NCBI GenBank assembly: GCA_037447435.1
Contig: JBBIGR010000039.1
Location: 1-49,604 of the forward strand
Source of the DNA: Fibrobacteria bacterium
Lineage (GTDB): Bacteria; Fibrobacterota; Chitinivibrionia; Chitinivibrionales; FEN-1185
DNA length: 49,604 bases
Reading direction: 5' to 3'
The notes beneath the pieces were generated by a model. That model saw only the letters and a list, made by a program, of their open reading frames with translations. It was not told the origin of the DNA and searched no databases. The translations under genes were made by a program, and so were the position numbers. Positions 117-16,798 of this stretch are shown one piece after another. The stretch's first letter is position 1; the number at the start of each line of letters is the position of its first letter.

Positions 117-3100
117 ATGAGAACATGTACTAACAAAATTTTTCTGGGTATATTTGTCATTTTCTCCTTATGTTGTATGTATGCAGGAAGCGCCGTGTAT
201 GCTTCGGCAGCGGAAGATAAAAAGAAGGCAGACCTTTTAAAACAGATCCAAGAGTTGGAAAACAAGAAAAAAGCCCTCGCCGATCAGACGCAACAGAAAA
301 TCAGCGCGAAAAAGGAAACCGGCAAAAGCTTGGAAGAGATCATTACCCGCTATGAAACGCTCATGGCAGGATGCACCAAGAAAAACGATCGATGCGCGGA
401 TGTTCTTTTTACCTTGGCACAACTTTATTACGACCAGGCTCGCGATTCGTACATTAAGGCGCGTGAAGATTATGGCAAAGCAATGGATGCCTATGAAAAA
501 AATCCGAAGGGCCCCGAGCCGATCAATCCGTTGCCGAATTATTCAAAGTCAATGAAAATGTACATACGATTGACTAAAGAATATGCCGATTTTAAAACCG
601 TGGACGAAGCGTATTATCAAATGGGCAATATTTACCTGGTTATGGGGGAAGTGGACAGCTCGCAGATGGCCTTCGAGCAGGTTATAAAAGTGAGCCCGAA
701 CGGAAGTCGCGCATCGGGTTCCCATTTCCGTATTGCGGACTTTGCCTATCTCAAACACGATTATCCAACCGCGTTAAAGCACCTTGAACAATGCAAATCT
801 GAAGGCCTTTCTCCGGATAATCTCGGCATGGTTCAATATCGTAAAGGTGAAATCAATTATAACATGGGGGATTTCGACAAGGCTGTCGAATATTTCTTTC
901 AATATGTTCAAAAATGCGATGCCGGAGAATATCCGAAGGCCGAATTCAGGCAGGAAGCGCTGGAATACATGGCAATCGCGTTTTCCGATATGCCGAAAGG
1001 ATCGGAAGAAGCTCAGAAGTTTTTCAAAAAAGTCAATGGCCGGGCCTACGAAGATTACGTCATTTATACGATCGGTATGAAGAACCGGGTGCATGGCCAA
1101 ACCGACGACGCTATCGTGGCGTTGCAGGCAGCTCTTAAAAAATATCCTTATTACAAAGATGCTCCAATTGCCCAGCAAATGCTTGTTGAATGTTATATCA
1201 TTAAAAAAGATTATGAAAAAGCAAATGCCGCGCGCGAAAAATTGGTCGATTTTTACGGCCAAGGCGGGGAATGGGCTTCAAAAAATACTACTCAAAAAGC
1301 TGTCATGGATCAGGCGAGAAACGAAGTCCGCAAGGCTTTAGCGGCAATTCCTTTATATTACCACGGACTTGCTCAGAAATCCAAAGACAAAGCGTTGTAT
1401 GAAAAAGCACTCAACCGGTACAATGAATTTGCGCAGAAATTCCCGGACGACAAATGGCATAATTATGAATTCCGTTATTATATGGCAGAAATTTATAATA
1501 CGCTTGGCAATTTCCAAAAGTCGGCAGAGAATTTCGATTATGTCGCAATGGCCGATCTTGCATCGTTCGGACAATTTAAAGAAGATTATGATACGCTCGG
1601 CATGGATCAAACCGAAATAGAAAAGCAGAAGAAAGAGGAAAAGTCCGGTCCTATTTCTATTTCGCAAGAGGACGCCGCCTATAATGCCGTTGTCGCTTTG
1701 ATGAATGCGAGAAAAAAGGCAATGGCAAAAGACGGGATTTCGGACGAACAATCTTTTACAATGCCCGAAACCAAGCAATTGCTTGATTTCGTACATCGTT
1801 ATCAGACGCGATTTGCAAAAAGCGTAAATGCAGCTGAAATTTCCTATATCGGTGCCGACATGTATTATGCGGCAAAGATGTACGATAATGCGAGCAAGGA
1901 TTACAAGTTTATCATCGATTCGTACCCGACTTCGAAATTCGCGCAGAAATCGATGCGTATGATAGCGAATTGCTACGTTAATACGGGCGAATTCGATTTG
2001 GCGCAGGCTAAATATAAAGACCTGTTGAAGAAAACAGAAGTAAACTCCGTCGATTATAATGAAATCGTAGAACTTGCCGCCGGAGCAATGTTTAAAAAAG
2101 CGGAAGCAATGAAAAAGTCGAATAACGTCATGGGTGCGGCCGACGCTTTCAAAGCGATTGCGAATGATTTTCCAAAGAGTAAAGTTGCAGCGCGCGGTTG
2201 GTTTGAGGCCGGCGTTTGCTATGAAGCCACAAATAACTATGAACTTGCTGCCGCGACGTTGCAGGAATTGGCCACAAAATTTGCCAACTCCGAAATGCGC
2301 GAGAATGCATTCTTACGGGCTGCCGATGATTTCAAAAAAATAGAAAAGTGGGCCAACGCCGCTGCGGTGTACCAGGCGGCCGCCATGGCAATAACCAAGC
2401 CCGATTATGCAATTCCAAGTTTGTCGTATGCCGCCGAAGCATATCAAAAAGTGAATGATTTTGAAAATGCGGGAAAAATGTATGAACTTGCCTATGAGCG
2501 TTATCCCAAAGACAGCAAAACGCCGCAAGCTTTGTACAATGCGGGATTGATTTTCGAAAAAGGCAAATTGTATGAACGTGCCATAAAATCCTACATGCTT
2601 TTGACGCAGAATTTCCCCACTTCCGAATATTCTCCTGAAGCGTATTTTTCCGTTGGCTTGTGCTACGAAAAAATGAAAAAGAATGTGGAAATGGCGTCGG
2701 TGTTTACGGACTTTGCCAGGAAATATGAAGGCGATAAGTACAAACAGGTTGAAGCGCTTGTAAAGGCGGGCGATGCGTATTACAATATGGGCGACATGAA
2801 AGAGGCGCAGAAAGATTATCAGCTCGCCGTGGAAGTATACGAGAAATTCAAAGGCAAACAGGACTTGAATGTCGAGGCGATCGCGAAGTCCTATTATATG
2901 CAGGGCGAAATTTTATATAAAGCCTTCAACGACATCAGCCTTAAAGGCAGCAAGAGTCAGGTCGCGAATAATTTGAAGCTGAAAGAAGAGGCGTTGAAAA
3001 ATGCCGCAGGTCCTTATGCTAAATCGATCGAAATCGGCGTTGAGGAATGGACATTGCGTTCGACGTTTAAAATCGGAATGGGTTTCGTTGATTTCGCGGA

Positions 3101-3878
3101 AGCAATCGAGGACCAGTCTATCGAAGGTTCAACCGAACAGAAAATCGGCGCAAAAATCAAGATACTTTCCAGTCTCGATAAATATTATCTGAGTTCACTT
3201 AAGTACTTCCAGAAAAACATCGAATGGGCCTACGATCAGAACATTACGGGCGATTACGTGGCGAAATCGATGGACATGTTCATGAAAGTTCTTTTCTTGC
3301 GTGCAAATGCAATTGAGAAAGTCGGAATAATTTTAAAGACGTCGCCTGTTCCAAAAGATCTGTCGAAGGAAGACAAACAGGCATATCAGGAAGTTCTTGA
3401 AGAAAAATCTCTCGAAGCAATGGACAAAGCGTTACCGCTTTATGAAGAAGCGATTAAAACCGCCGCCGAAATGGGTATAGACAAGAGTCCGTGGCTCACG
3501 AAAATTAAAGAACGTATTCAGGACATAAACCCGTCGTCTCAGGCTCTTACGCTCGAAATAAAGCCGCGTGCTCCTAAACCGGTACAGGAAGATGCTGCGG
3601 CTCAAGGAGGAGACGCCGGAAATAAAAAGGACGGGAAAAAAGTGTCGGCGGCAACGCCGGGCAGTTCAAACGCTTCTGCGTCGGCAGCTCCGGGATTTCG
3701 AGACGATGCATATCAAAGAAATATGAAACGTATCCAGAATATTATTGCAATGGATATCCCGCTTGACGACAAGGTAAAGCAACTTAAAAGAATAGAAACG
3801 GAAGCTTTGAGAAATATAGACCTTGAACAGGAAAAAATTTCCGATCTTAAAAACGGTTCAAGCGGGAATAGTCAATAA
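117..3878 (+). CDS. Large exported TPR protein, GltD/AgmU-like
   Basis: RBS AGAGGAG at 101-107; N-terminal signal peptide; many TPR units; C-terminal GltD-type motifs (EEWTLRSTFKIG; PVPKDLSKEDKQAYQEVLEEK...A.PLYE.A...A.EMG...W); directly upstream of exbB/exbD/exbD/TonB-C genes. Confidence 0.8.
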   Translation: MRTCTNKIFLGIFVIFSLCCMYAGSAVYASAAEDKKKADLLKQIQELENKKKALADQTQQKISAKKETGKSLEEIITRYETLMAGCTKKNDRCADVLFTLAQLYYDQARDSYIKAREDYGKAMDAYEKNPKGPEPINPLPNYSKSMKMYIRLTKEYADFKTVDEAYYQMGNIYLVMGEVDSSQMAFEQVIKVSPNGSRASGSHFRIADFAYLKHDYPTALKHLEQCKSEGLSPDNLGMVQYRKGEINYNMGDFDKAVEYFFQYVQKCDAGEYPKAEFRQEALEYMAIAFSDMPKGSEEAQKFFKKVNGRAYEDYVIYTIGMKNRVHGQTDDAIVALQAALKKYPYYKDAPIAQQMLVECYIIKKDYEKANAAREKLVDFYGQGGEWASKNTTQKAVMDQARNEVRKALAAIPLYYHGLAQKSKDKALYEKALNRYNEFAQKFPDDKWHNYEFRYYMAEIYNTLGNFQKSAENFDYVAMADLASFGQFKEDYDTLGMDQTEIEKQKKEEKSGPISISQEDAAYNAVVALMNARKKAMAKDGISDEQSFTMPETKQLLDFVHRYQTRFAKSVNAAEISYIGADMYYAAKMYDNASKDYKFIIDSYPTSKFAQKSMRMIANCYVNTGEFDLAQAKYKDLLKKTEVNSVDYNEIVELAAGAMFKKAEAMKKSNNVMGAADAFKAIANDFPKSKVAARGWFEAGVCYEATNNYELAAATLQELATKFANSEMRENAFLRAADDFKKIEKWANAAAVYQAAAMAITKPDYAIPSLSYAAEAYQKVNDFENAGKMYELAYERYPKDSKTPQALYNAGLIFEKGKLYERAIKSYMLLTQNFPTSEYSPEAYFSVGLCYEKMKKNVEMASVFTDFARKYEGDKYKQVEALVKAGDAYYNMGDMKEAQKDYQLAVEVYEKFKGKQDLNVEAIAKSYYMQGEILYKAFNDISLKGSKSQVANNLKLKEEALKNAAGPYAKSIEIGVEEWTLRSTFKIGMGFVDFAEAIEDQSIEGSTEQKIGAKIKILSSLDKYYLSSLKYFQKNIEWAYDQNITGDYVAKSMDMFMKVLFLRANAIEKVGIILKTSPVPKDLSKEDKQAYQEVLEEKSLEAMDKALPLYEEAIKTAAEMGIDKSPWLTKIKERIQDINPSSQALTLEIKPRAPKPVQEDAAAQGGDAGNKKDGKKVSAATPGSSNASASAAPGFRDDAYQRNMKRIQNIIAMDIPLDDKVKQLKRIETEALRNIDLEQEKISDLKNGSSGNSQ

Positions 3879-3991: not shown

Positions 3992-4618
3992 ATGCAAATG
4001 CTTAATTTCTTGTTGCTTGGTTTTCAGTCATCCGCAGGTTTCCTCATGTGGATTATTCTTGTGGTTTTGTTTGCAGGACTTGGTTTGTTTATCGAACGTT
4101 TTTGGTACTTGTTCCTGAAATGCGACATGGGGAGCGCTGCATTTATGAAGGGCATCTCGAACTATTTAAAGGCCGGCGATTATGAACGCGCGATTAAGTA
4201 CGCTGCAACACTGAAGTCGCCAATTGCTAAAGGTGTTTTGGCCGTTCTTCAAAATCGCGGTAAAGGATCCAAATCCATTCGTAAAGCTGTTGATGAAGTG
4301 TTCCTTACCGAAGGCCCGAAAATTAAAAGAAATGTGTTCCTTCTTAACGTGTTTGCAAACCTTGCAACGCTTATCGGTTTGACAGGTACGATTTACGGAA
4401 CAATGGAATGTTTCGACGCTATCGCTAATGCTCCCGCTGCGCAAAGAGCACAGCAGTTGGCTTCCGGTATTTCCATCACAATGTCTGCAACGCTGATGGG
4501 TCTTCTTACTGCCGTTCCTTGTATCCTTATGGGCGGTATCTTAACTGCCAAGGCAGATAAAATTGTGGAAGACATGGACGAAAAGGTTACCAAATTAAGC
4601 AATGCTGTTGAAGAATAA
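3992..4618 (+). CDS. MotA/TolQ/ExbB proton-channel protein (AglR-like)
   Basis: Three hydrophobic segments; IERF after TM1; ANLATLIGLTGTIYG and LASGIS.TM.AT.MGLL.AVP channel motifs. Confidence 0.9.
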   Translation: MQMLNFLLLGFQSSAGFLMWIILVVLFAGLGLFIERFWYLFLKCDMGSAAFMKGISNYLKAGDYERAIKYAATLKSPIAKGVLAVLQNRGKGSKSIRKAVDEVFLTEGPKIKRNVFLLNVFANLATLIGLTGTIYGTMECFDAIANAPAAQRAQQLASGISITMSATLMGLLTAVPCILMGGILTAKADKIVEDMDEKVTKLSNAVEE

Positions 4619-4713: not shown

Positions 4714-5520
4714 ATGTCCAACATGCCACGAAAAAAACTTAGTGAAGGCGCTGAGGCGGAAATCGACCTTAAGCCCTTTATTAACTTTCTTGTTGTGCTC
4801 ATTCCGGTGCTCATGCTTTCTGCGGAGTTTGCAAAAATATCAATTATCAATTTGAAACTTCCCGAAGGCAGAGGATCACAAACGGAAACCGCTGTAAAAA
4901 CGCCACCGCCAAACGATGATTCGGACAAGCTCCTTCTTACCATGATTGTCACGGATTCCGTTGTTACGCTTGGTGCAAAGGGTGGGTTTATGCCCAGTCT
5001 TTTTTACAAGGAATTTCACAAATACGTTTCCCGGGAAGACCGGGGCGTAGAGGTGACGGTAGAGTATGATCCTTCGAATCCGAAGAAAATGCCGCTCAAT
5101 CCGAAAACGCGAAAACCGTTTACGGTCTATGAGCGTCAGGAAATTATGCTGTATGTTACGGACGAAAACAGGAATATCATCAATTGCATGTATACAAAAA
5201 CAAATGAGATGTTGACCGATGCTAACGGTAAACCAATGCAAAAGGTGAATCCCGGCGATACGGTGTATGTACTTACCAATCCGCGGCGAATGGTTATCGT
5301 GACAAACCCGGCCCAATTCGTTTTGAAACCGCTGTCTGCGTACGATGAGATGAAAAATCGTCTTATGAAAATCAAGCAACGGTATGTGGATGTGCCGGAT
5401 GGAAACGACATCATTTTGGCGGCGGAAAACGAAGTCGCATACGACAAGATTGTACAGCTTATGGATGTTGCAAGAGCAGCTGAATTTCCCAACATCGCTA
5501 TTTCGAAATTAAGGAGTTAA
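4714..5520 (+). CDS. ExbD/TolR family protein with large periplasmic insertion (AglQ-like)
   Basis: N-terminal EIDLKPFINFLVVLIPVLMLSA TM; C-terminal IILAAENEVAYDKIVQLMDVARAAEFPNI ExbD motif; 268 aa. Confidence 0.85.
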   Translation: MSNMPRKKLSEGAEAEIDLKPFINFLVVLIPVLMLSAEFAKISIINLKLPEGRGSQTETAVKTPPPNDDSDKLLLTMIVTDSVVTLGAKGGFMPSLFYKEFHKYVSREDRGVEVTVEYDPSNPKKMPLNPKTRKPFTVYERQEIMLYVTDENRNIINCMYTKTNEMLTDANGKPMQKVNPGDTVYVLTNPRRMVIVTNPAQFVLKPLSAYDEMKNRLMKIKQRYVDVPDGNDIILAAENEVAYDKIVQLMDVARAAEFPNIAISKLRS

Positions 5521-5521
5521 T

Positions 5522-6028
5522 ATGGCTATCGTTAGAGGAAGGAACAAATATGCGACTCCGAAATCTGCGGGGTTGATTATCACTTCCTTGATTGACTTCT
5601 TTTCCATTGTCGTGATTTATCTCATGAAAAGTTATTCTGCAGAAGGTAGTATTCTTACAAATGCGGATAACCTTGTCCTGCCCAACTCTGTCGCAATTTC
5701 GAAGCCAAAGGAAATATATCTCCAGTTGGCCGCTACAAGCGATATGATACTGGTAGACAACGTTCCTGTTGTTCCTACCGACGATGTGAGAAGAATTCCA
5801 CAGAGCGTTGCAGATCCCATTGTGCCAAAACTTGAGGAAAAATTGCAGGCTGCGTATCAAAAAGAACAGCAAATGGTTCGTTTGGGAGCGCTCAATAAAA
5901 TTCAAGGAAACGTGATTATTCAGGTCGATAAGAATCTTGAATTCGATGTCCTTTTCAAACTCATGAACACCTGCGGAAAAGTCGGATACAATAATATGAA
6001 TTTCGCAGTTATGGAAAGGGAACAATAG
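5522..6028 (+). CDS. ExbD/TolR family protein (AglS-like)
   Basis: LIITSLIDFFSIVVIYLMKSYS TM with conserved Asp; C-terminal IIQVDKNLEFDVLFKLMNTCGKVGYNNMNFAV; RBS AAGGAG. Confidence 0.88.
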   Translation: MAIVRGRNKYATPKSAGLIITSLIDFFSIVVIYLMKSYSAEGSILTNADNLVLPNSVAISKPKEIYLQLAATSDMILVDNVPVVPTDDVRRIPQSVADPIVPKLEEKLQAAYQKEQQMVRLGALNKIQGNVIIQVDKNLEFDVLFKLMNTCGKVGYNNMNFAVMEREQ

Positions 6029-6030
6029 CT

Positions 6031-7329
6031 GTGAAGTATAAAGTACTAATAAAAAAATGCGCAGACCCCCAACGGGCCGATAAGATCGCCGAAGAGGTCG
6101 CCCGCTGGTCAGGTACGACAGCGGATGTTGTCCGGAATGTGATCACACAAAAGCCGGTATGCATCCGTAAAGAAGCCGAAGAAGCAGAGGCAATGCGGCT
6201 CAAGCAGCAATTTGAGGCCATCGGTGCGGAAATTGAGCTTGTTGCTTTGGAAAAAACCGCTGCAGCTCCTGTTTCATCGCAGGCTGATTCCGACGAAGAA
6301 GATTCCGATCTTGACGGCAGGGTTCTTTCCGATTCAGAATATTCACAAGTGCTCAGCAAGCGCGGCGACATATTCACCATGGACAAGGACACCCGCCTCA
6401 GAAACGTCATGACGATTTGCATGATACTCGGTATTGTTGCCGGCGTGTACATGAGTACGCTTAAAATCGTACAGGTCGCCACTGACTTTTTCGAAAAGAT
6501 TCCGGAAGAGCGTGTTGCAAAATTCGTGAAAAACGAAGTCGACGCAACGCTCGATCAGCAGAAAAAGAAAGATGAAGAAAAGAAAAAAGAAGAGGAAATA
6601 AAAACCGATAAAAAAACGCTCAGCAAAAAGCCGACCTCAAAAGGCGCTGGCGGTACGACGGGCGGCGGCGGCGATCCCCGCGCACGCGTAACGCAAAAAG
6701 GAGTTTTAGGTATTATTTCCGGAAAAATCACCGGTAAAGCGGTTGCCTCTGCCGATATCTTCGGAAAAGGCGGATTTGCATCGGGTATCGACGGCGTTTT
6801 GCAAGGTATCGGCGGTCTTAAAGCCGGCGGTTCCGGCGGCGTCGGTCGTAAGGGTGCAGCAGGTATCGGTTTTGGGGCAGGGTACGGAAGCGGATTCGGC
6901 GGCGGAAGCGGCATGGGTGTCGACGACCTCATCGGCGGCCTCCTGGGCGGCGAGGGCGAAAGCAGCTTGTCTCTTAAGAAACGCGGAAACCTTACCGTGT
7001 CCGAACCAAAATTTGTCAAGGGTGGCGCTCTCACGGGCGGTCGAAGCCGTGCGAGTATCATGCGCGTCGTTATGCAGAACTTGGCTGCATTGCGCTATGC
7101 CTACAACAAGAGACTTCGTGAAAAACCCGGTCTTAAGGGAAAAATCACCTGCAAGTTTGCAATTGATGAATTCGGTAAAGTTATATTCTGTGAAGCAGTC
7201 GAGTCGACCATGGCCGATGCTTCTTTGGAAGCTGAAATAGTCGACAAGGTAAAACGATGGGTTTTCGAAAAAATAGACAAACCCGGCGATGTTACCGAAG
7301 TCGTGTATCCTTTCGTATTCTCGCAGTAG
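6031..7329 (+). CDS. GltG/PglI(AgmX)-like TonB C-terminal-domain protein with N-terminal L7/L12-CTD-like domain
   Basis: GTG start; single TM (VMTICMILGIVAGVYM); Lys/Glu-rich linker; GVLGII followed by a long Gly-rich tract; C-terminal GGRSRASIMRVV...YNKRLREKPGLKGKITCKFAIDEFGKV...W.F......VVYPFVF typical of the AgmX/PglI C-terminal domain. Confidence 0.85.
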   Translation: MKYKVLIKKCADPQRADKIAEEVARWSGTTADVVRNVITQKPVCIRKEAEEAEAMRLKQQFEAIGAEIELVALEKTAAAPVSSQADSDEEDSDLDGRVLSDSEYSQVLSKRGDIFTMDKDTRLRNVMTICMILGIVAGVYMSTLKIVQVATDFFEKIPEERVAKFVKNEVDATLDQQKKKDEEKKKEEEIKTDKKTLSKKPTSKGAGGTTGGGGDPRARVTQKGVLGIISGKITGKAVASADIFGKGGFASGIDGVLQGIGGLKAGGSGGVGRKGAAGIGFGAGYGSGFGGGSGMGVDDLIGGLLGGEGESSLSLKKRGNLTVSEPKFVKGGALTGGRSRASIMRVVMQNLAALRYAYNKRLREKPGLKGKITCKFAIDEFGKVIFCEAVESTMADASLEAEIVDKVKRWVFEKIDKPGDVTEVVYPFVFSQ

Positions 7330-7430: not shown

Positions 7431-7469
7431 TAAGCCGTGTGTTGCCTTAAATTCTATGGAGGAAAAACT

Positions 7470-8702
7470 ATGAAGAAGATTGCGTGCTTGGTACTCCTTG
7501 CGGGGTGGTTCGTCGGCAGCTATGCGACAGATGCGAGAGTGTATACGATGGGTGGCCATGATAATTTTTTCATGGACGATTTCAGCATTTTTAAAAACCC
7601 TGCGAACATTAATTATTATCCGAACATGTTGCTCGGCTCTCCCGGGGTGTTCAATACCGACCCATCAGATACGAGTCAGGCTCAGAAAAATCGGAATCCG
7701 CAAAAACCGTATTTCGGGCCCATCTTGTCGTATTCATTGAACCAGTCGTCCGAAAGCGGCACGCAATATCCTTTATTGTCATTTGGAGCAATATTCAACA
7801 GATACGATGACATGCTCGATTATCTTGATCCGTCGTCCGCCGTTTTCCAGAATGCGTATCAGGCTAGTACGACTAAATACGTGACCATGGTTGCACCGGT
7901 CGGGAAAATCGATGTCATGTTGGGTTATGCAATGCAAAACGGCATGATGTTGGGTGTCGGCGGGTATTTCGCGTTTCAGAGAGAAAAATCGGCGTATGAA
8001 ACTATGCCGGAACTTGAGTCCGATTTGTATCGTTTGAATGTCGGTATAAATTGGCCTGTCGCAAAATCAATGAATCTCGAAGCGTCCGCTGGGATTGCAA
8101 GTGTGACTGCCGTTGCACAGGATTCGACTTCAGACGGCGTGACCTCCGTCGATATTGCAAAATCGAATATTTCAGCTCGCGGCGATATCCGTTTGTTTTC
8201 GGCCCTCACTTCTCTTAATGGAGATTTCGTTCCCCATCTTGGCGTCGAATACATCAATTTGAAGAACTATACCGACCTTGATATTGCTGCCGGCCTCGGT
8301 GTGAACGTCAATATCGATAAAGGTTTTTTCTGGGCAGGTATCGAAGGATTATATACCGCACAGAATTACAAAATTCTCAAATCGACACCGACCGGTGTCG
8401 GCGGCAGAGTAAGCGCCGGCTTGGAACGCAACGTGTTCTTCGACTGGTGGGTCTGGCGTATCGGTGTCAGCAAATCGCTTCTGTATATTACCGATGCCGG
8501 TGAAGACGGGCACTGGGCGCAGAATCCGGAATCCGACGGAAGCAATAAAGACGCTTTCTCCCTTGGTTGGGGACTTAATATCGAAAACCGTTTGAAAGTT
8601 GACGTCGTCATGGCGGAAGATATGTTTTATACATTTACAAATCTTATCAGCGGAAACGCGAGCCATTTGACAAATAGGATTTCGTGCACGTACAGTTTCT
8701 AA
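7470..8702 (+). CDS. Outer-membrane beta-barrel protein (FadL/PorV-like N-terminal signature)
   Basis: RBS GGAGG at 7458-7462; signal peptide; ARVYTMGG...DDFSIFKNPA N-terminal motif; alternating amphipathic strands; C-terminal Phe (ISCTYSF). Confidence 0.7.
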   Translation: MKKIACLVLLAGWFVGSYATDARVYTMGGHDNFFMDDFSIFKNPANINYYPNMLLGSPGVFNTDPSDTSQAQKNRNPQKPYFGPILSYSLNQSSESGTQYPLLSFGAIFNRYDDMLDYLDPSSAVFQNAYQASTTKYVTMVAPVGKIDVMLGYAMQNGMMLGVGGYFAFQREKSAYETMPELESDLYRLNVGINWPVAKSMNLEASAGIASVTAVAQDSTSDGVTSVDIAKSNISARGDIRLFSALTSLNGDFVPHLGVEYINLKNYTDLDIAAGLGVNVNIDKGFFWAGIEGLYTAQNYKILKSTPTGVGGRVSAGLERNVFFDWWVWRIGVSKSLLYITDAGEDGHWAQNPESDGSNKDAFSLGWGLNIENRLKVDVVMAEDMFYTFTNLISGNASHLTNRISCTYSF

Positions 8703-8720: not shown

Positions 8721-8790
8721 TGCAAATCATGACATAACGATGCGGATGATACGGCTTGAAAGAGTATCATCCGCATTTTTTATTGAAACT

Positions 8791-11700
8791 ATGCCAAAAC
8801 CCGATTTACAACGATATTTAGTTTCTTTCCTGCTTCTTTTCCTGTTCGGCGGTGCCATTGTCGGGGAAACGGTAAGCCTTTCCATGGCCGTAACCGTAGC
8901 CGGGTCTTCGGTACTCGGAAAACTGTTTTTGGTAAATGGCGTGCTTCTTTTTTTACTTCCCCCCCTCTTTTTCAACAGGATAGACAAGGTCAATAGGGGA
9001 CGGTTGCTTTCCGTGCAATTGCTCATCGTGGCGATAGTGCTGATTTGCTATATGATAGTATTTACGGTTTTGGGAAACAACAACCTCAAGGCACTTTCTT
9101 TTTGTATACTGATGATTTACCCGTTATCGTATCTCTCCAAAACGACGTTATTCCTCTCGTTTTGGACATTGGCTAACGATATCTATACCACCGATGAGGC
9201 GAAAAAGGAATTCCCCCGTATTGCCGCATGGGGGTTTATCGGCGGCCTCAGCGGCGCATGCGGGGCCCGGTTGCTCCTTGAGGTTTTCGATATTCAAATG
9301 ATACTCGGTCTTTGGGCCATCGCCTACCTTATCGCATATTTTTTTGCCAAAAAAATTACAAAGAAACACAAGTCCCAATTTCTCCATAAGGAATATATCG
9401 AACAGGAAACGACCCGTATTCCACTGTTGCAATCGGCGAAGGCTGTTCTCGGCATCAAACTGATACGGCTCATCGCGATACTGTATTTCTTCGTTTTTAT
9501 CGCGGTATTCATGCAGGATTTTTTGTTTTGGAAAAAAAGCGCCTTGTTCTTTCCAACAGCCAATTCCCTTGCGGCTTTCCAATTCTCCTATTACGTCGCA
9601 TATTCATTTGTCACTATTGCGGGTCTTCGGTTTGTCATGCCTTCGGTGATTGCGCGATGGGGTTTCACGAGGGTGTTTTCATTTTTACCCGTCACCTTAC
9701 TCCTCGGATCGCTCTGCGTGCTGTGCGTAGACCTTGCGGGTGTTGCGACGGGCACGGTCTTCATGTGCTTTCTTGGATATCAATTTTTCCGCTATGTTGT
9801 TTTCGAAAACGCCTTTTCGCCGGTATACCAGATGTTTTTCGCGGCAATTCCAAAAGAAAAACGGGGTAGAGCAAAAACATTTCTTGAGGGTATCGTAAAA
9901 CCCTCTGCAATCATGCTTACCGGCCTTGCACTCATTGCCATGCCGTCTATACCGGCAAACGGAATCCTTGCCTTTATCACGGGAATTTCGGCGTTAATGA
10001 TACTCACCGTTGTCAGAATCCGTAAAACCTATACCGAGGCATTGGTACCCAATTATTCTCAGTATACGCTGCCTGCGGACGTCATTGCGCATATCGGCGG
10101 TTATCACGATCAAAAAATCCTGGCGCTCATCAGCGAGTATTCGCAATCGCATGATAGCGATATCCGAACGATTGCAGTTAAAATCCTTGCATACGAAGGA
10201 TCGCGGGAGTCGTTTACGGTATTTAAAAATATTTTTGAAAAAGAATCCGATTCCGCTGTTAGGGAAATGCTTGCGCGTTATTGCAAATATTTTGCCGGGT
10301 TTGAAATTATGCCCTTGCTCGAAATTATGGTTGCTGACCAGAACCCGCGTATTCGCGCAAACGCCCTCCATTGTTTGAATTCGATCGATACGCCCTGGAA
10401 AAATAAATTTTACGATACGGTCAAGAGTTTATTTTTCGAGGCTCATTTACGGGTACAAATCGAATCGGCGATATATTTATGGCATTCGGGCCAGATCCAT
10501 GAGCGTGAAAACGTCCAGGCATTCCTTAAGTATTTGCTACAGGTCAAGAACACGAACAAACGTTCCGCCGGATTATTTCTTGTCGGAGAAATAAGGCCAG
10601 GCGGCTGGGAAGATATTTTACTCGATCATTTGCATGAATCATCGATGCAGGTTTTTACAAAATGCGTTGAAACCATTATGGCGAACGCGACGGAACAAAC
10701 AAAGCAGCGAACGCTCACCGTAATTGCGACGCTCAGCAGAAAACACATTTCGGTTATGGGGCGCATATTGTCGCAACTCGGAGCAGGGGCTTATGCGACG
10801 ATCATTAACGCAATGGCACAGGATCAGGACAAACGAATGATGGTAGAGCTTGTGCTTGCGGCCCGACAGATTATTGAAACGCATTCGGAGCAAATAAAAG
10901 AACTGGAATTCGAAGGGGAGCAAAGGTCCGCACTCAGTTCATGGATAATAAATGAATTGGCAACTATCTACAAGGACGCGTACATATGGACAAAATTTTC
11001 GCTGCAGGGTGATTGCAGCCATGCATGCAGAAACGCGGTCTGCTATTTGGAACAGGCGTTAGTCGATCAGCATGCGAAGATTTGCGATTGGGCGCTCGAC
11101 GTCGTGGCGTTGCTCGATAAACAGGGCGTAATGGCAACGGTCCGCCGGGATCTTGACATGAGGGAGCCGTCCCAAAGAAACGACATGATCGAACTTCTTG
11201 AAGCATTTGCTCCGCCGGACATCGGATCGCTTATCATACCGATTTTACGGTCAAATTCACTTGCACACCTTGCGAAAGTGGGCAACGGCTATTTTAATTT
11301 TGATGATAAAAATTTGCCCATCACTATAGATCATTTCGTATCCTCTCAAAGTCATTGGATTTGCATTTGCGCCCTCTATTGTGTTTGGCAAAAAGAAAAC
11401 GGCTATGGACTTGTTTTAGAGAACAAGTCTATCCTGCAACGTATATATAATGAAAAAAGTTCGCCGGTTGTCCCGATTGCGGCGGCTTTGCTGCATTTGG
11501 TTTCGGAAAATAAGGAGATGAGTATGGAGCCGTTTGATCTTTTGGAGCAGGTAATGTCCTTGAAAAAAACGCAACTTTTCAGGAATGTGCCTGCCGAAAA
11601 GCTCATAGATTTGGCCGGCATAAGCAAACGCCTTTCTTATAAGAAGGGAACGCTGATTTCGCGGGAAGGAGAGCTGTCGGACCACCTTTATATAGTGGCC

Positions 11701-12018
11701 AAAGGAAGTTTGAAAATTGTTAAGATAAAGAGCAATGTAAAAACTATTTTAACTATTATAGAAAAAGGCGATACCTACGGTGAAATAGGGCTTTTCAACC
11801 AGGCTCCGCGTTCGGCTTCCGCCATTGCGGATTCCGATTGCGATCTGTGGGTGATTCAGAGGAGTGCGTTAAAAAAACTCTTGCTCGAAATGCCTGACAT
11901 AGCCTATAATCTCTTAGAGGTGTTCAGCGAAAAACTGAAGAAAAGCGGCGACGAGGTTGCCGAATTGAAAACCGGTTTTTCGGGCAATAAAAAAGAATTA
12001 ACAATAGACGAAGTATAA
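8791..12018 (+). CDS. NTT/TLC-like (Npt1/Npt2, MFS-fold) transporter with HEAT repeats and C-terminal cyclic-nucleotide-binding domain
   Basis: About 12 TM N-terminal region with FWTLANDIY...EAKK.F and R.RAKTFLEGIVK NTT-like motifs; HEAT-like repeats (DQNPRIRANAL); cNMP domain LKKTQLF...ISREGE.SD.LY.V..G...GEIGLFNQAPRSASA. An alternative start at 8740 is possible. Confidence 0.85.
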   Translation: MPKPDLQRYLVSFLLLFLFGGAIVGETVSLSMAVTVAGSSVLGKLFLVNGVLLFLLPPLFFNRIDKVNRGRLLSVQLLIVAIVLICYMIVFTVLGNNNLKALSFCILMIYPLSYLSKTTLFLSFWTLANDIYTTDEAKKEFPRIAAWGFIGGLSGACGARLLLEVFDIQMILGLWAIAYLIAYFFAKKITKKHKSQFLHKEYIEQETTRIPLLQSAKAVLGIKLIRLIAILYFFVFIAVFMQDFLFWKKSALFFPTANSLAAFQFSYYVAYSFVTIAGLRFVMPSVIARWGFTRVFSFLPVTLLLGSLCVLCVDLAGVATGTVFMCFLGYQFFRYVVFENAFSPVYQMFFAAIPKEKRGRAKTFLEGIVKPSAIMLTGLALIAMPSIPANGILAFITGISALMILTVVRIRKTYTEALVPNYSQYTLPADVIAHIGGYHDQKILALISEYSQSHDSDIRTIAVKILAYEGSRESFTVFKNIFEKESDSAVREMLARYCKYFAGFEIMPLLEIMVADQNPRIRANALHCLNSIDTPWKNKFYDTVKSLFFEAHLRVQIESAIYLWHSGQIHERENVQAFLKYLLQVKNTNKRSAGLFLVGEIRPGGWEDILLDHLHESSMQVFTKCVETIMANATEQTKQRTLTVIATLSRKHISVMGRILSQLGAGAYATIINAMAQDQDKRMMVELVLAARQIIETHSEQIKELEFEGEQRSALSSWIINELATIYKDAYIWTKFSLQGDCSHACRNAVCYLEQALVDQHAKICDWALDVVALLDKQGVMATVRRDLDMREPSQRNDMIELLEAFAPPDIGSLIIPILRSNSLAHLAKVGNGYFNFDDKNLPITIDHFVSSQSHWICICALYCVWQKENGYGLVLENKSILQRIYNEKSSPVVPIAAALLHLVSENKEMSMEPFDLLEQVMSLKKTQLFRNVPAEKLIDLAGISKRLSYKKGTLISREGELSDHLYIVAKGSLKIVKIKSNVKTILTIIEKGDTYGEIGLFNQAPRSASAIADSDCDLWVIQRSALKKLLLEMPDIAYNLLEVFSEKLKKSGDEVAELKTGFSGNKKELTIDEV

Positions 12019-12048
12019 TACAGACACATTAAACCAACAGGAGGATGT

Positions 12049-13536
12049 ATGAAGGTGCGGATCGTACTTAGTAGTTTGCTTGTTGCCGCAGTTTCACTGA
12101 TGATGGTGGGCTGCATTGGTTCGAAAAAGGCCCCGCAGGAATTCACTGTTCTCATCAGAATGATGCCCGCGCAACAGCGGTATTTCGAACAGGAAATCGT
12201 TGCAAAGTTCAATAAATTGCACAATTGCAAAATCTCGGTCGCGACGTTTACCAACCAATGGGACATCGAACGGTTCCTAAAGCTCGATGCGGGCAAGAAA
12301 AAACCCGAAATAGGACTTGTCAAGACTCCGTTCGAGGTAACACGCGTTTTGGTGTACAAGGGCTATATGCAGCCGCTTACCAATGTGACCGATTCCATTC
12401 AGGTCATGCAGGATCTGGCTGAATATCATCAGTTGGCTACCGGACTCGGATTCATCGACGGTCAGCCGTATTATATCCCGCGCAAACTCGAAACGCGCGT
12501 CATGTTTTATCGCCCTTCTATGGTTGCCGATGCGGTATCCAAATTCGACAAATACAAGAAAGCGATTGCCGAAGAACTTAAAAAACAAAACGCAGTCGGC
12601 TTGCCAAAGGATTATGCTCTTGAAGCCGATCCCAAAGAATGGGACTTGTACGATCTCTTCGTGGTCGGGTATATATGGTCGCATGAAACGTATAACGGCG
12701 TGAAAATGGCCCGTATCGCCCATCGCGGCGCAAAGTACGAAGGAACCGCACTCGACATAGTCGACCGTGCGCTACAGCTCGGCGCAACGCATCAGGACGT
12801 ACTCACCCTCGGCGATAAAACGTCCCAGGCTCTTTTGTGGGAAAACGTTTTTATCCGCAATGGCCTTTACAATCAAGGAATGTGGCAGGACCCGTGGAGA
12901 GGTTCCGATTTGTATAACGGCATCAAAGACGGCAAAGTGTTCCTGACGTTCCTGCAGCAGATCGATTGCTTTAACGTTCACGGCTGGGCCGACGATCCCG
13001 GAATGCCCACGTATTTGCCCGATGTTAAGGACATGGGGCTTTGCCTTCAGCCGAAAGCGGTATCATTCGACCTTACCGCGCAAGGGCAAAGCGTGTTCGA
13101 GGGCTCTCGTGCGATTTCGACCGGCGGTTGGTGGTGGGGAATTCCCAAAACAAGCCCGAACGCAAAACTTGCCTATGAATTCGCCCGTTTCGTGACCGAT
13201 CGCGAAAATCAGGCAAAAGAATGTTCGAAATTCGGCATGATCCCGGTTCGTAAAGATATTCTCCTCAATTTGCCCGAAGTGTTCGACGAAGGCTGGGTAG
13301 GGGATATTTTCAAAACTTCGGTTGAACAGGTCAAAATAAACGAGTTGACCACTGTTCCACTCGTCAAGGCATATCCCGAAGTTGCCAAGAATATTATAGA
13401 CGCGTGGTATAAGCTTTGCGTCGAATACGATGCGAAGAAAGACGGCGTCATGAACGGACCGGCAATGAAGCAAAAACTTGAAAAAGATTTCTTGCCGGCA
13501 CAGAAACAGGCCCTTGGCGCCGAATATCCGAAGTAA
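12049..13536 (+). CDS. ABC transporter extracellular solute-binding lipoprotein (carbohydrate-type)
   Basis: RBS AGGAGG; lipobox MVGC; GGWWWGIPKTSPN..LAYEF motif typical of sugar SBPs; precedes two permeases and an ATPase. Confidence 0.85.
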   Translation: MKVRIVLSSLLVAAVSLMMVGCIGSKKAPQEFTVLIRMMPAQQRYFEQEIVAKFNKLHNCKISVATFTNQWDIERFLKLDAGKKKPEIGLVKTPFEVTRVLVYKGYMQPLTNVTDSIQVMQDLAEYHQLATGLGFIDGQPYYIPRKLETRVMFYRPSMVADAVSKFDKYKKAIAEELKKQNAVGLPKDYALEADPKEWDLYDLFVVGYIWSHETYNGVKMARIAHRGAKYEGTALDIVDRALQLGATHQDVLTLGDKTSQALLWENVFIRNGLYNQGMWQDPWRGSDLYNGIKDGKVFLTFLQQIDCFNVHGWADDPGMPTYLPDVKDMGLCLQPKAVSFDLTAQGQSVFEGSRAISTGGWWWGIPKTSPNAKLAYEFARFVTDRENQAKECSKFGMIPVRKDILLNLPEVFDEGWVGDIFKTSVEQVKINELTTVPLVKAYPEVAKNIIDAWYKLCVEYDAKKDGVMNGPAMKQKLEKDFLPAQKQALGAEYPK

Positions 13537-13548
13537 CCCTTTGTAAAC

Positions 13549-14451
13549 ATGCTTCGTGCGTGGTTTAATCGACAGGGGAAAACAATCAAACAGATATGGC
13601 CGCTGCTTCCTGCAGCGGCCTATCTTTTGGGGTTCCTTGTCATTGTCTGCGCGTATCTGATCGGGCTTACTTTTTCCACCGAAACCTCCCCGGGTCATTT
13701 TCTTTTTCCGTCGATGCATACGCTGTCCACAATATTTACAGGTAAGCAATTTTCAAAGGCGTTGATCAATACGGTGGCTTTCGTTTTGGTCGGGACGCCG
13801 CTCGAAATCGTTTCAGGGTTTTTCCTGGCAATTATTCTATACAACAGCTTCAAGTTTCGAAGCATTATTCGCGGGTTGTTCCTTATTCCGCTCGCCTTGC
13901 CGGCGCTTGTTACGGCAACCCTGCTTTTTATCCTTTTCGATTTTCCCGGCGGGCATATCAATCATTTGCTTATGGGGAAATACGCCGTGTTTCCGCAAGT
14001 TATTTCGCATCCTATCGATTGGCGGGGTTCCCGTTTTTTTGCATTGGGCATTTCACTATTGGGCAAGGCATGGCGCGATGCACCTATTTCAATGCTTATT
14101 TTACTCTCGGGACTAAACGCCATAGATCCAGAAATACTCGACGCTGCCAAAACCATGGGCGCTGGTCTTCGGCGAAGAATTTGGCACGTCATATTGCCCC
14201 TTATGATTCCGTCGCTGTCGGCCGTATTGCTGCTTCGCTCGATCGAGATGTGGAAAGAATTCATATTTCCCTTTATTCTGGCAGGTAAATATGGCCTGCT
14301 CGGAACGCTCATAGAGTCATTGTATAACGATTGGGGAAATTCGAACCAGGCTGCGGCCGTTGCACTTATTTTGGTATTGTGCATCGTGTTTTCGACCTTA
14401 CTGTTTTTGTGGGTTATGGAGATTTTAAAAAAGAAAGTATTAAAGGTGTAG
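13549..14451 (+). CDS. Carbohydrate ABC transporter permease (MalF/UgpA-like)
   Basis: Hydrophobic; EAA loop LSGLNAIDPEILDAAKTMGA. Confidence 0.9.
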   Translation: MLRAWFNRQGKTIKQIWPLLPAAAYLLGFLVIVCAYLIGLTFSTETSPGHFLFPSMHTLSTIFTGKQFSKALINTVAFVLVGTPLEIVSGFFLAIILYNSFKFRSIIRGLFLIPLALPALVTATLLFILFDFPGGHINHLLMGKYAVFPQVISHPIDWRGSRFFALGISLLGKAWRDAPISMLILLSGLNAIDPEILDAAKTMGAGLRRRIWHVILPLMIPSLSAVLLLRSIEMWKEFIFPFILAGKYGLLGTLIESLYNDWGNSNQAAAVALILVLCIVFSTLLFLWVMEILKKKVLKV

Positions 14452-14455
14452 GCCG

Positions 14456-15307
14456 ATGCCTCTTGCAAAATCGTCATTTCTCAAGAAACGGGCAAAAGGC
14501 CTGGTGTGGGTCGCCAGCATCCTGTTTTCCGTCGCGCTCGTCGTGGTGCCCGTTTACCTGCTTGTCAAATATTCGGTGTCCGACAGCGGAAGCATCAACA
14601 CCGGCGGTGCTCCCATACCGCTTTGGCCCTACGCGCCGACGCTTCGGAGTTTTACATATCTGTTTACCGAAAGTCAATTTTACGGCGTCATAGTAAACAG
14701 TATAATCATTGCCCTGGCAACCGTCTTTTGTTCCATGTTGCTGGGAGTGCCCGCCGCCTATGTTCTTGGCCGGTACAGAGTTCCATTTAGGCGGACCATG
14801 CTTTTGGGCCTTATTTCCGTTCGGCTATTTCCCGATATTTCATCGGTTATTCCCATTACCGAATTTTTCATCCGGTTCGGGCTCCAAAATTCCTATCTCG
14901 GAGCCGTTTTGGGCCATACGCTTTTGGCGTTACCCTATGTCATATTCATCGGCATGAGCGCCTTTGAGTCCATTCCATCGGACTTGGAGCAGCAGGCGCA
15001 AGTCATGGGCGCCGGAGGGTTCACGATATTTTTCAAGATATTATTGCCGTTGTCAATTCCCGGTTTAATTGCGGCCGCGATTTATACGTTTTTATTGTCG
15101 TGGGATGAATTTATTTTTTCTTATTTCCTTTTGGGGCTTGGCAAAATCTCGACGCTGACGTTGTTTTTGCGGCAAAAGCTTGCGTATGCGCCGCCGCAAA
15201 ATCTGTTGGCCGCCATTTCCGTTTTCATCAGCGTTCCGGTCATTGCATTTTCTTTGGCGTTGCAGAAATATATGACTGCAGGGTACACCTCCGGATCGGT
15301 AAAGTAG
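14456..15307 (+). CDS. Carbohydrate ABC transporter permease (MalG/UgpE-like)
   Basis: FESIPSDLEQQAQVMGA EAA loop; FLLSWDEFIF motif. Confidence 0.9.
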   Translation: MPLAKSSFLKKRAKGLVWVASILFSVALVVVPVYLLVKYSVSDSGSINTGGAPIPLWPYAPTLRSFTYLFTESQFYGVIVNSIIIALATVFCSMLLGVPAAYVLGRYRVPFRRTMLLGLISVRLFPDISSVIPITEFFIRFGLQNSYLGAVLGHTLLALPYVIFIGMSAFESIPSDLEQQAQVMGAGGFTIFFKILLPLSIPGLIAAAIYTFLLSWDEFIFSYFLLGLGKISTLTLFLRQKLAYAPPQNLLAAISVFISVPVIAFSLALQKYMTAGYTSGSVK

Positions 15308-15314
15308 GTACAAA

Positions 15315-16436
15315 ATGTCGGCCGTTGTTCTTAATAATATTTGTAAACGTCTCGGTACCAATCAGGTCATTAACGGGTTGAGTCTGGATGTCAAGGACGG
15401 GGAATTCGTCACGCTTTTGGGCCCGTCGGGTTGCGGAAAAACGACACTGCTGCGGATGATCGCCGGTTTGGAGGAAATAGACAAAGGGGATCTATATATC
15501 GGGGACAAGCGCTGCAACGATATTCCGTCCCAAAACCGTAATTTGGCTATGGTTTTCCAAAGTTATGCGCTTTTTCCGCATATGACAGTCGCCGATAATA
15601 TCCGTTTCGGCCTTAAAATCAACAAAACACCGCCCGATGTCATACAAAAAAAGCTGACATGGGCTCTCGATATGTTTAGTTTGGCGGGTTTGGAAAAACG
15701 TCTGCCGCGTAATATTTCGGGCGGACAGCGTCAACGCGTGGCGCTCGCACGTGCCCTGGTGCTCGAACCTAACGTACTGCTTTTGGATGAACCGTTGTCT
15801 AACCTCGATACCGCGCTCCGTGAACTTGCTATGGAAGAATTGAAGCGTATTCATCATCAGGTGGGGAAAACGGTCATATACGTGACGCACAATCAAGTCG
15901 AGGCCATGACCATGAGCGAACGTATCGCGGTGCTCAATAGCGGCGTATGCGAGCAATACGACACGCCGCGTATGGTTTACGATATGCCGCGTACCTTGTT
16001 TGCCGCGGCGTTTATCGGCAGTCCGGCAATGAATTTTTTCGACGGTACCGTTATTATTCGAGAGGAAGATGCAGGTGTCGATACGCCGCTGGGATTCATA
16101 CGTATCGATAAAGACCGTTTCGGGCTTGCCCAAAAGTTTGTCGGAAAATTCGTCAGAGTCGGTATTCGGCCGCAAAATATCGCCTATGTCGAACACCGGG
16201 AATCAAAACGGTATTCCGATACAACGGTAACCGTGGAAGTCGAATTAGTGGAAACGCTGGGCGACAGAAGCTTAGTCATATCTCGCGGGAATCAAGACAC
16301 TAAATTGCGGTTTCTTATCGCGCGCGACATCACGTTGCAAATAGGTCAAAAACTGGATATGTTTTTAGACGGCCGCAGGATATTGCTTTTTGATCAGGAA
16401 ACAACCCTCAATATTTTCTCAGAGCCAAAAATATGA
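15315..16436 (+). CDS. Carbohydrate ABC transporter ATP-binding protein (MalK/UgpC-like)
   Basis: Walker A GPSGCGKTT, Q-loop MVFQSYALFPH, signature ISGGQRQR, Walker B LLLDEPLSNLD, FIGSPAMN, C-terminal TOBE-like region. Confidence 0.95.
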   Translation: MSAVVLNNICKRLGTNQVINGLSLDVKDGEFVTLLGPSGCGKTTLLRMIAGLEEIDKGDLYIGDKRCNDIPSQNRNLAMVFQSYALFPHMTVADNIRFGLKINKTPPDVIQKKLTWALDMFSLAGLEKRLPRNISGGQRQRVALARALVLEPNVLLLDEPLSNLDTALRELAMEELKRIHHQVGKTVIYVTHNQVEAMTMSERIAVLNSGVCEQYDTPRMVYDMPRTLFAAAFIGSPAMNFFDGTVIIREEDAGVDTPLGFIRIDKDRFGLAQKFVGKFVRVGIRPQNIAYVEHRESKRYSDTTVTVEVELVETLGDRSLVISRGNQDTKLRFLIARDITLQIGQKLDMFLDGRRILLFDQETTLNIFSEPKI

Positions 16437-16798
16437 AAATCCGATCTTTACGGTTAACACGGTTTCGTACGGTACATACGTTATTCATTGCGGCATTGCT
16501 GCTTCTTTGCATGGGTTGCGGAGGAGAAAAACCCGAAATCATCAAATCGAAGCTCGATGCGATCATTGCATCGGACTTTAAGGCGCTTCTTGCCGAATTG
16601 CCTCAAAAAAGCCATAGCGATTCGGTGCATTTTGTGTGCAGGGAATATACGACATTTAAAAAAGGGCCGTATCGGGTCAAGGCGGTTGTCGATTTTTATT
16701 ACCTTCGCGACGTGAATGTCAAGCGAACCGTCAAATACCGGTATGTCAAAAGCGCAGGTCAATGGGAACGATACGACAATGAATATGTCTATTATTAA
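16433..16798 (+). CDS. Hypothetical lipoprotein
   Basis: ATGA overlap with the ATPase gene; basic N-terminus, hydrophobic stretch and lipobox CMGC. Confidence 0.75.
   Translation: MKIRSLRLTRFRTVHTLFIAALLLLCMGCGGEKPEIIKSKLDAIIASDFKALLAELPQKSHSDSVHFVCREYTTFKKGPYRVKAVVDFYYLRDVNVKRTVKYRYVKSAGQWERYDNEYVYY

Follow-up and report, generated by a model that had tools for sequence, protein, structure and literature searches.

In Fibrobacter succinogenes, the gene cluster Fisuc_1891-1897 (FSU_2396-2403) was assigned to the Agl-Glt core complex, with a GltG homologue of 308 aa (Fisuc_1897) and a GltD-like counterpart of MXAN_4870 (Fisuc_1893), and the function of the core complex outside the myxobacteria was stated as unknown in the accessible text of that study (Luciano et al. 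2011, PMC3169522). This question has been open since 2011. According to the accessible text of later work, the cluster is raised on cellulose and an uptake or surface complex was proposed (Raut et al. 2015, 2019; PMC4619616, PMC6851124). Within the gliding model, the connection between motor and cytoplasm is resolved least. Chitinivibrionia were described as flagellated, and gliding is unmentioned in the available sections of PMC4704652 and PMC11700989. Moreover, non-ribosomal L12/ClpS modules were described by Burroughs et al. 2025 (PMC12419801) and Kaur et al. 2020 (PMC7159879); in the sections available, these mobile domains form fusions with HTH sensors or vWA proteins, and one lies in the cytoplasmic part of a protein with a single transmembrane (TM) helix.

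The window analysed here is the whole stretch of 49,604 nucleotides of contig JBBIGR010000039.1 of a Fibrobacteria bacterium (order Chitinivibrionales). The order comprises cellulose- and chitin-degrading bacteria, and the transducer considered below belongs to a proton-driven envelope motor encoded by the following genes:

117..3878, + strand, secreted TPR protein of 1253 aa, GltD-like by position and size
3992..4618, + strand, MotA/TolQ/ExbB subunit, AglR-like (PF01618, E 1.5e-21)
4714..5520, + strand, ExbD/TolR subunit 1, AglQ/S-like (PF02472)
5522..6028, + strand, ExbD/TolR subunit 2, AglQ/S-like (PF02472)
6031..7329, + strand, GltG-like transducer of 432 aa (NF033768, NF033760)
7437..8702, + strand, PopA-like outer-membrane protein (porin), located after the transducer phylum-wide (NF053618, E 7.2e-11, below cut-off)
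16433..16798, + strand, putative lipoprotein of 121 aa, a conserved operon member without Pfam family

The Agl-Glt core set (AglR, two AglQ/S, GltG-like and GltD-like TPR genes) is clustered here, and the operon is the known Agl-Glt core-complex motor. The original prediction of an undescribed system therefore had to be given up, and since the machine was already known, the new part is the L12-fold domain of its transducer. The F. succinogenes cluster equals in gene order and sizes the stretch of family f10, which matches this operon gene by gene (shared order: OmpA, GltC-like TPR, GltD-like TPR, AglR, two ExbD, GltG-like). However, Fisuc_1897 with its 308 aa has no space for a cytoplasmic domain, whereas the transducer here has 432 aa and an L12 fold; unlike in F. 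succinogenes, the downstream region has taken up a block of sugar ABC transporter genes, and the adjacency to mreB is gone. Myxococcus xanthus GltG (PglI) resembles the transducer in being bitopic, with a Gly-rich periplasmic segment and a TonB-C-like end, and in being encoded alongside AglRQS-like and GltD-like genes, but it has two FHA domains where the transducer carries one L12-fold domain. Of the group A genes of the myxococcal gliding machine (GltA, B, H, K, I, J, F), the search covered GltJ, and a full GltJ was not found in this genome (best 42.9 bits versus 450). No giant GltI-like cytoplasmic TPR protein was evident among the 25 longest frames, as judged by their first residues.

The gene order is kept in 65 related loci (Fibrobacterota, Chitinivibrionales or Chitinispirillaceae where named), which extend the operon upstream by genes for a TPR protein of 800 aa and for an OmpA/beta-helix protein. 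The GltC-like TPR gene lies upstream in 29 related loci, and here its position coincides with the assembly gap between contigs C7 and C39. At one related locus (L065) the whole operon carries many frameshifts, probably due to assembly error. Between the porin and lipoprotein genes of the window (8740-16436) a TLC/HEAT/cNMP-binding membrane protein and the sugar ABC transporter are inserted; this insertion is found in part of the order, the TLC/HEAT/cNMP-binding gene being present in 29/66 loci. Further downstream, a 1403-aa ORF without Pfam match is located between clpC and bamA (23258-27469).

The transducer is encoded by a 432-aa ORF (6031-7329, + strand) with a GTG start codon, located 3 bases past the stop of the upstream ExbD-like gene and preceded by a purine-rich stretch at a distance of about 10 bases. 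The N-terminal peptide quoted in the original prediction corresponds to residues 2-71. The protein is divided as follows:

6031..6246, + strand, bL12-CTD/ClpS-fold domain, residues 1-72, predicted to be cytoplasmic (predicted model and family matches)
6247..6318, + strand, variable linker, Ala/Pro-rich and then acidic, about 20-50 residues among homologues, the least conserved region (0.45)
6319..6402, + strand, conserved juxtamembrane segment, retained in paralogues without the L12-like domain, probably the motor-docking element
6406..6462, + strand, single transmembrane helix, hydropathy peak at residue 126
6463..7329, + strand, periplasmic part with a Lys/Glu stretch, a Gly-rich segment and an AgmX/PglI (TonB-C-like) C-terminal domain

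The carrier had been called GltG-like, and this stands, given that NF033768 (AgmX/PglI C-terminal domain) is matched by residues 339-431 with 80.3 bits against a cut-off of 40 and NF033760 (GltG profile) by residues 156-432 (E 6.3e-28, 97.7 bits); by the latter match the periplasmic part is homologous to GltG 384-647. The transducer falls outside the GltG equivalog, which is defined by a score above 650 and an N-terminal FHA domain, and no FHA match was obtained for it in the Pfam/profile search. The only hydrophobic stretch peaks at residues 126-144. An acidic linker followed directly by this helix had been expected; the linker was confirmed (residues 86-95), but a conserved segment of 28 residues (97-124) intervenes. 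The mean share of the majority residue among 120 homologues was 0.82 for the domain, 0.45 for the linker, 0.69 for the juxtamembrane segment, 0.61 for the TM helix and 0.90 for the C-terminus.

The resemblance of the N-terminus to bL12's C-terminal domain (CTD), originally seen by eye, was borne out by family matches and by two fold searches. PF00542 is the sole Pfam match of the first 71 aa, at a score below the cut-off (E 2.8e-4, 21.6 bits versus 25.9). The curated cut-offs for bL12 are likewise not reached (TIGR00855, 18.3 bits versus 84.4). Among 37 aligned orthologous domains, 34 match PF00542 at E<=1 and none matches ClpS (PF02617). An AlphaFold2 model computed from the 37-row alignment has a mean pLDDT of 92.8 and predicts a three-stranded sheet and three helices within about 70 residues, in the order strand-helix-helix-strand-helix-strand. 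In Foldseek, ranks 1-6 were bL12 CTDs with TMq 0.69-0.80, and no match fell below E 0.001 (1ctf, E 1.0e-3, TMq 0.75, rmsd 2.0; 2zjq, TMq 0.80). An independent structure search of 48,161 chains gave bL12 (Z 9.6, rmsd 2.0, 69 aligned) tied with ClpS (Z 9.1); these two families fill the first 8 rows, after which Z drops to 6.6. Residues 1-73 gave a best value of 0.84 in the ESM Atlas, which is taken as a lead only, and in a PDB sequence search the matches to bL12 were weak and ranked under designed helical repeats. Identity was 14-25% to bL12 rows versus 4-16% to ClpS rows. The N-terminal domain is thus predicted to have the bL12-CTD/ClpS fold.

The domain shares with the bL12 CTD (PF00542) the predicted fold, the length, the flexible tether and the C-terminal half of the sequence motif. 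It differs from ribosomal bL12 in being membrane-anchored, in scoring under the Pfam cut-off, in the loss of the basic helix residues and, as it begins at residue 1, in having no N-terminal dimerisation domain. The true rplL of this genome sits elsewhere, on contig C32, and the transducer gene lies outside the rplA-rplJ-rplL operon. Nearly invariant positions are the Ala16-Ala20-Ala24 stripe, Cys10, Gly28, Cys44 and Glu53. Cys10 and Cys44 (window 6058-6060 and 6160-6162) are invariant in 37/37 rows despite the predicted cytoplasmic location.

Across the phylum, the domain profile matched 68 of the 80 further genomes surveyed within the order, in nine families, and 1 of 170 genomes of other orders, the latter match being a TPR protein and not a transducer. 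The domain is present in 45 of the 65 related loci; of the remaining 20, six are cut at the contig start, three encode juxtamembrane-only paralogues and 11 encode other fusions of the C-terminal part. Among the matches listed, all 120 full-length homologues carry it, a count that is partly circular, since 40 of these proteins went into the profile. With the L12-fold domain kept in relatives of the same order, the earlier view of a distinct variant was substantiated: one Fibrobacterota order bears a new architectural variant of the known Agl-Glt machine. The literature contains no mention that we found of an L12/ClpS domain on a GltG/TonB-like transducer, within a search whose scope was papers outside subscription and part of the supplements; L12 and ClpS have zero occurrences in the accessible text of PMC11761067. 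Compared with the described L12/ClpS modules on HTH sensors or vWA proteins, the carrier here is a TonB-like motor transducer.

Outside the order, the syntenic transducers of f10, f15, f16 and f19, representing four of five outgroup operons, have 319-340 aa and no N-terminal domain, and the same is true of three further transducers of f13 and f14 (320-330 aa). The TM helix lies within the first 60 residues in all 30 loci that were kept. In the fifth outgroup operon, that of f17, the N-terminus was predicted as a beta-rich FHA fold (pLDDT 89.5; FHA in the top Foldseek rows; Z 8.2, TM <0.55). Pfam matched this f17 domain in 1/7 rows (E 0.28), so that it was recognised by fold search only; L157:5424-6704 (- strand) and its f17 relatives are orthologous transducers whose degenerate FHA-fold N-terminus is overlooked by Pfam. 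The wording that the L12 domain stands "in place of FHA" is therefore only partly right: there is an L12 fold instead of FHA, but a replacement does not follow, as four families are domain-less and only one has FHA. In a quickly searched tree, computed from 60 rows over the C-terminal 230 residues (midpoint root, long branches), 13 domain-bearing proteins and three domain-less paralogues grouped together with an SH-aLRT of 99. Judging from these sequences, the simplest history would be a single gain of the domain on a bare transducer and later loss in duplicates, because most other families and Fisuc_1897 are domain-less and only f17 has FHA; alternatively, FHA may have been exchanged for L12. 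The N-terminus of one orthologous transducer thus exists in three forms (none, FHA, L12 fold), and the cytoplasmic module is therefore a swappable add-on.

Related domains occur on other proteins as well. A related L12-like domain in the same genome (hhalign 89.8%) belongs to an unrelated bitopic protein on contig C21 (33179-34381), in which the L12 fold is followed by a Pro-rich linker, a TM helix and a periplasmic domain. This family is found in 34/131 phylum genomes and its helix stays basic; it is a possible donor of the transducer domain, and its basic domains may bind something other than the partner of the transducer domain. L12-like domains were also seen fused to BY-kinase-like P-loop proteins (P0136, P0143; 2/35 scanned relatives). 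Two profile matches, P0141 and P0177, were discarded as repeat artefacts.

The bL12 CTD binds IF2, EF-Tu, EF-G and RF3, and the reference titles hint at a role of helices 4-5 and of charge complementarity (PMC12548414, PMC4267659, as far as accessible). It had been proposed that the domain recruits a GTPase, either MglA or a translation factor, in the manner of bL12. The genome encodes one mglA-mglB pair, in Myxococcus the cytoplasmic part of GltJ is a target of MglA-GTP (PMC11135422, accessible text), and four of 35 scanned domain relatives are fused to dynamin-like GTPases. However, the Myxococcus partner site is a disordered linker and not a folded domain, and the copies fused to dynamin-like GTPases have the scores of ordinary PF00542 repeats, with Lys retained in the helix. 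In the transducer domain, the basic residues of the bL12 helices are replaced by Ala, Glu and Asp. For the mapping we used K72, I76, K77, R80, K88 and K91 of the genome's own bL12, the presumed factor-binding residues. With an ungapped register for the first helix anchored on the T-G/S-G turn (hhalign aligned residues 27-70 only), K72 maps to A16 (35/37), I76 to A20 (36/37), K77 to E21, R80 to A24 (37/37) and K88 to D32, and K91 maps to a variable position. Furthermore, MglA is present in 213/250 phylum genomes regardless of the domain; f10 has MglA in 105/113 genomes and the domain in 0/113. Co-occurrence with MglA is uninformative. The families f11-f14, which gave no MglA match, are also without the domain, and this may be compatible with a link of the domain to MglA. 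Altogether the proposal was weakened by the lost basic residues and the phylum-wide MglA, and it is now considered distinctly unlikely. A ClpS-like adaptor, which would bind N-terminal degrons or a Clp ATPase and control the turnover of motor parts, is less probable still. In the fold comparison ClpS is level with bL12 (Z 9.1 versus 9.6), ClpS was not found in this genome by PF02617 search and clpC lies 13.5 kb downstream, but the sequence signal is wholly that of bL12, the genes that follow the operon do not include clpC at any of the 13 related loci listed, and the Asn/Asp-rich loop, presumably the degron-pocket motif of ClpS, is absent from the domain.

The domain could also act within the motor, by docking onto the AglR-like pentamer at its cytoplasmic ring or by self-association that clusters transducers. 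The conserved Ala stripe fits close helix-helix packing, a published model places the TM-proximal FHA domain of Myxococcus GltG against AglR on its cytoplasmic face (PMC11761067, accessible text), and Kaur et al. termed an L12/ClpS insert "multimerizing" (PMC7159879, accessible text). On the other hand, the linker varies between 20 and 50 residues and a separate juxtamembrane segment is retained upon domain loss, which suggests that this segment does the motor docking; moreover, proteins encoded elsewhere than in motor operons carry related domains, so that action within the motor seems unlikely. The presence of related domains on unrelated bitopic proteins speaks for a general landmark of the cytoplasm as partner, rather than the motor. 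That the domain is a passenger or merely stabilises the N-terminus would agree with its loss in paralogues and with most phylum orthologues doing without it, but its conservation (0.82, above the TM helix) and its presence in 68/80 genomes of nine families make this highly improbable. About evenly balanced for and against, in our judgement, is the reading that the domain is a tethered cytoplasmic docking module, added to the GltG-like transducer of the core motor, which positions or regulates the motor and is not a GTPase activator. It draws on the observed gene and domain order, single TM helix, conservation, loss of the basic helix and three N-terminal states of the orthologues, together with the modelled fold. 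The conserved downstream genes were considered as source of a cytoplasmic partner and rejected, as both products look secreted.

The genomic neighbourhood of mreB bears on a possible partner. All five outgroup operons (L153-L157) run directly into mreB-mreC-mrdA, which lies downstream of the genes for porin and lipoprotein; in four of these stretches the lipoprotein gene is located between porin gene and mreB. When counted by hand in 131 genomes, with both genes required and nine porin-only genomes left out, the porin gene and mreB were within 2 kb in 25/29 other-order genomes (f10 19/19, f15 5/5, f17 1/1; not in f12 or f13) and on one contig in 0/51 same-order genomes. In the present genome, mreB is on contig C63 amid other genes. 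The term mreB is absent from the accessible text of PMC4619616 and PMC6851124 and from the part of the supplements of Luciano et al. 2011 that was covered. As the operon adjoins mreB in most other-order genomes, these data suggest that the ancestral core machine works with the Rod system. Since the link is lost in the order that bears the domain, this is evidence on the ancestral machine and not directly on the domain; gain of the domain and loss of the mreB link count as one historical event, not as independent cases, and neither the link nor the domain is found in f12 and f13. The MreB/Rod platform is our best single guess for the partner of the domain, given that the operon leads into mreBC-mrdA in the majority of other lineages, albeit a tentative guess that is probably wrong. 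The domain as a stand-in for a missing RodZ was rejected: RodZ-like HTH_25 proteins were present in 5/5 genomes tested, and there is therefore no missing MreB tether to replace. A complex prediction that paired 37 rows of the domain with 9 rows of MreB gave 0.00 twice, with controls that did not fold, and counts neither for nor against such binding.

For the docking-module reading, the following mechanism is proposed by analogy. Proton flow through the ExbB/ExbD-type motor would act on the TM helix and juxtamembrane segment, as in Myxococcus and Tol, and these would engage the AglR-like ring, as in the modelled Myxococcus complex (PMC11761067, accessible text). The Gly-rich segment and the TonB-C-like end would engage the GltD-like TPR scaffold, with the Gly-rich part wrapped around it, and the C-terminal domain would pass force outward to the outer-membrane barrel and OmpA/PopA-like proteins. 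On the cytoplasmic side, the L12-fold domain would hang from the flexible acidic linker like the distal FHA domain of Myxococcus GltG, and its flat Ala16/20/24 face, the basic face in bL12, would take a helix of the partner; alternatively, the Ala stripe could reflect tighter internal packing. A broader and rather improbable scenario would pair the core motor of the Fibrobacterota with the cell-wall elongation machinery, the domain of this order being an adaptor to an MreB or MglA/B platform which steers the motor. If true, a co-opted ribosomal-stalk fold would be a new kind of adaptor, convergent with the FHA/GltJ solution of Myxococcus. Because the operon adjoins mreBC-mrdA, F. succinogenes permits a direct test of whether this cellulose-induced machine is linked to the Rod system, and the domain offers a bait of 72 residues, predicted to be well folded, in species that have been cultured (Chitinispirillum alkaliphilum CHISP_0449, strain ANBcel5).

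Two further observations were made. MglA is nearly phylum-wide, non-flagellated lineages included, and in the present genome the mglA-mglB pair (C11:50647-52856) encodes proteins with long low-complexity C-terminal tails. Additionally, the Gly-rich and C-terminal parts or the juxtamembrane-TM part of the transducer recur within the same order as grafts on VIT/vWA-like, TPR and other proteins, namely at loci L036, L043, L046, L047, L057, L059, L060 and L062 and on contigs C6, C35 and C40 of the present genome.
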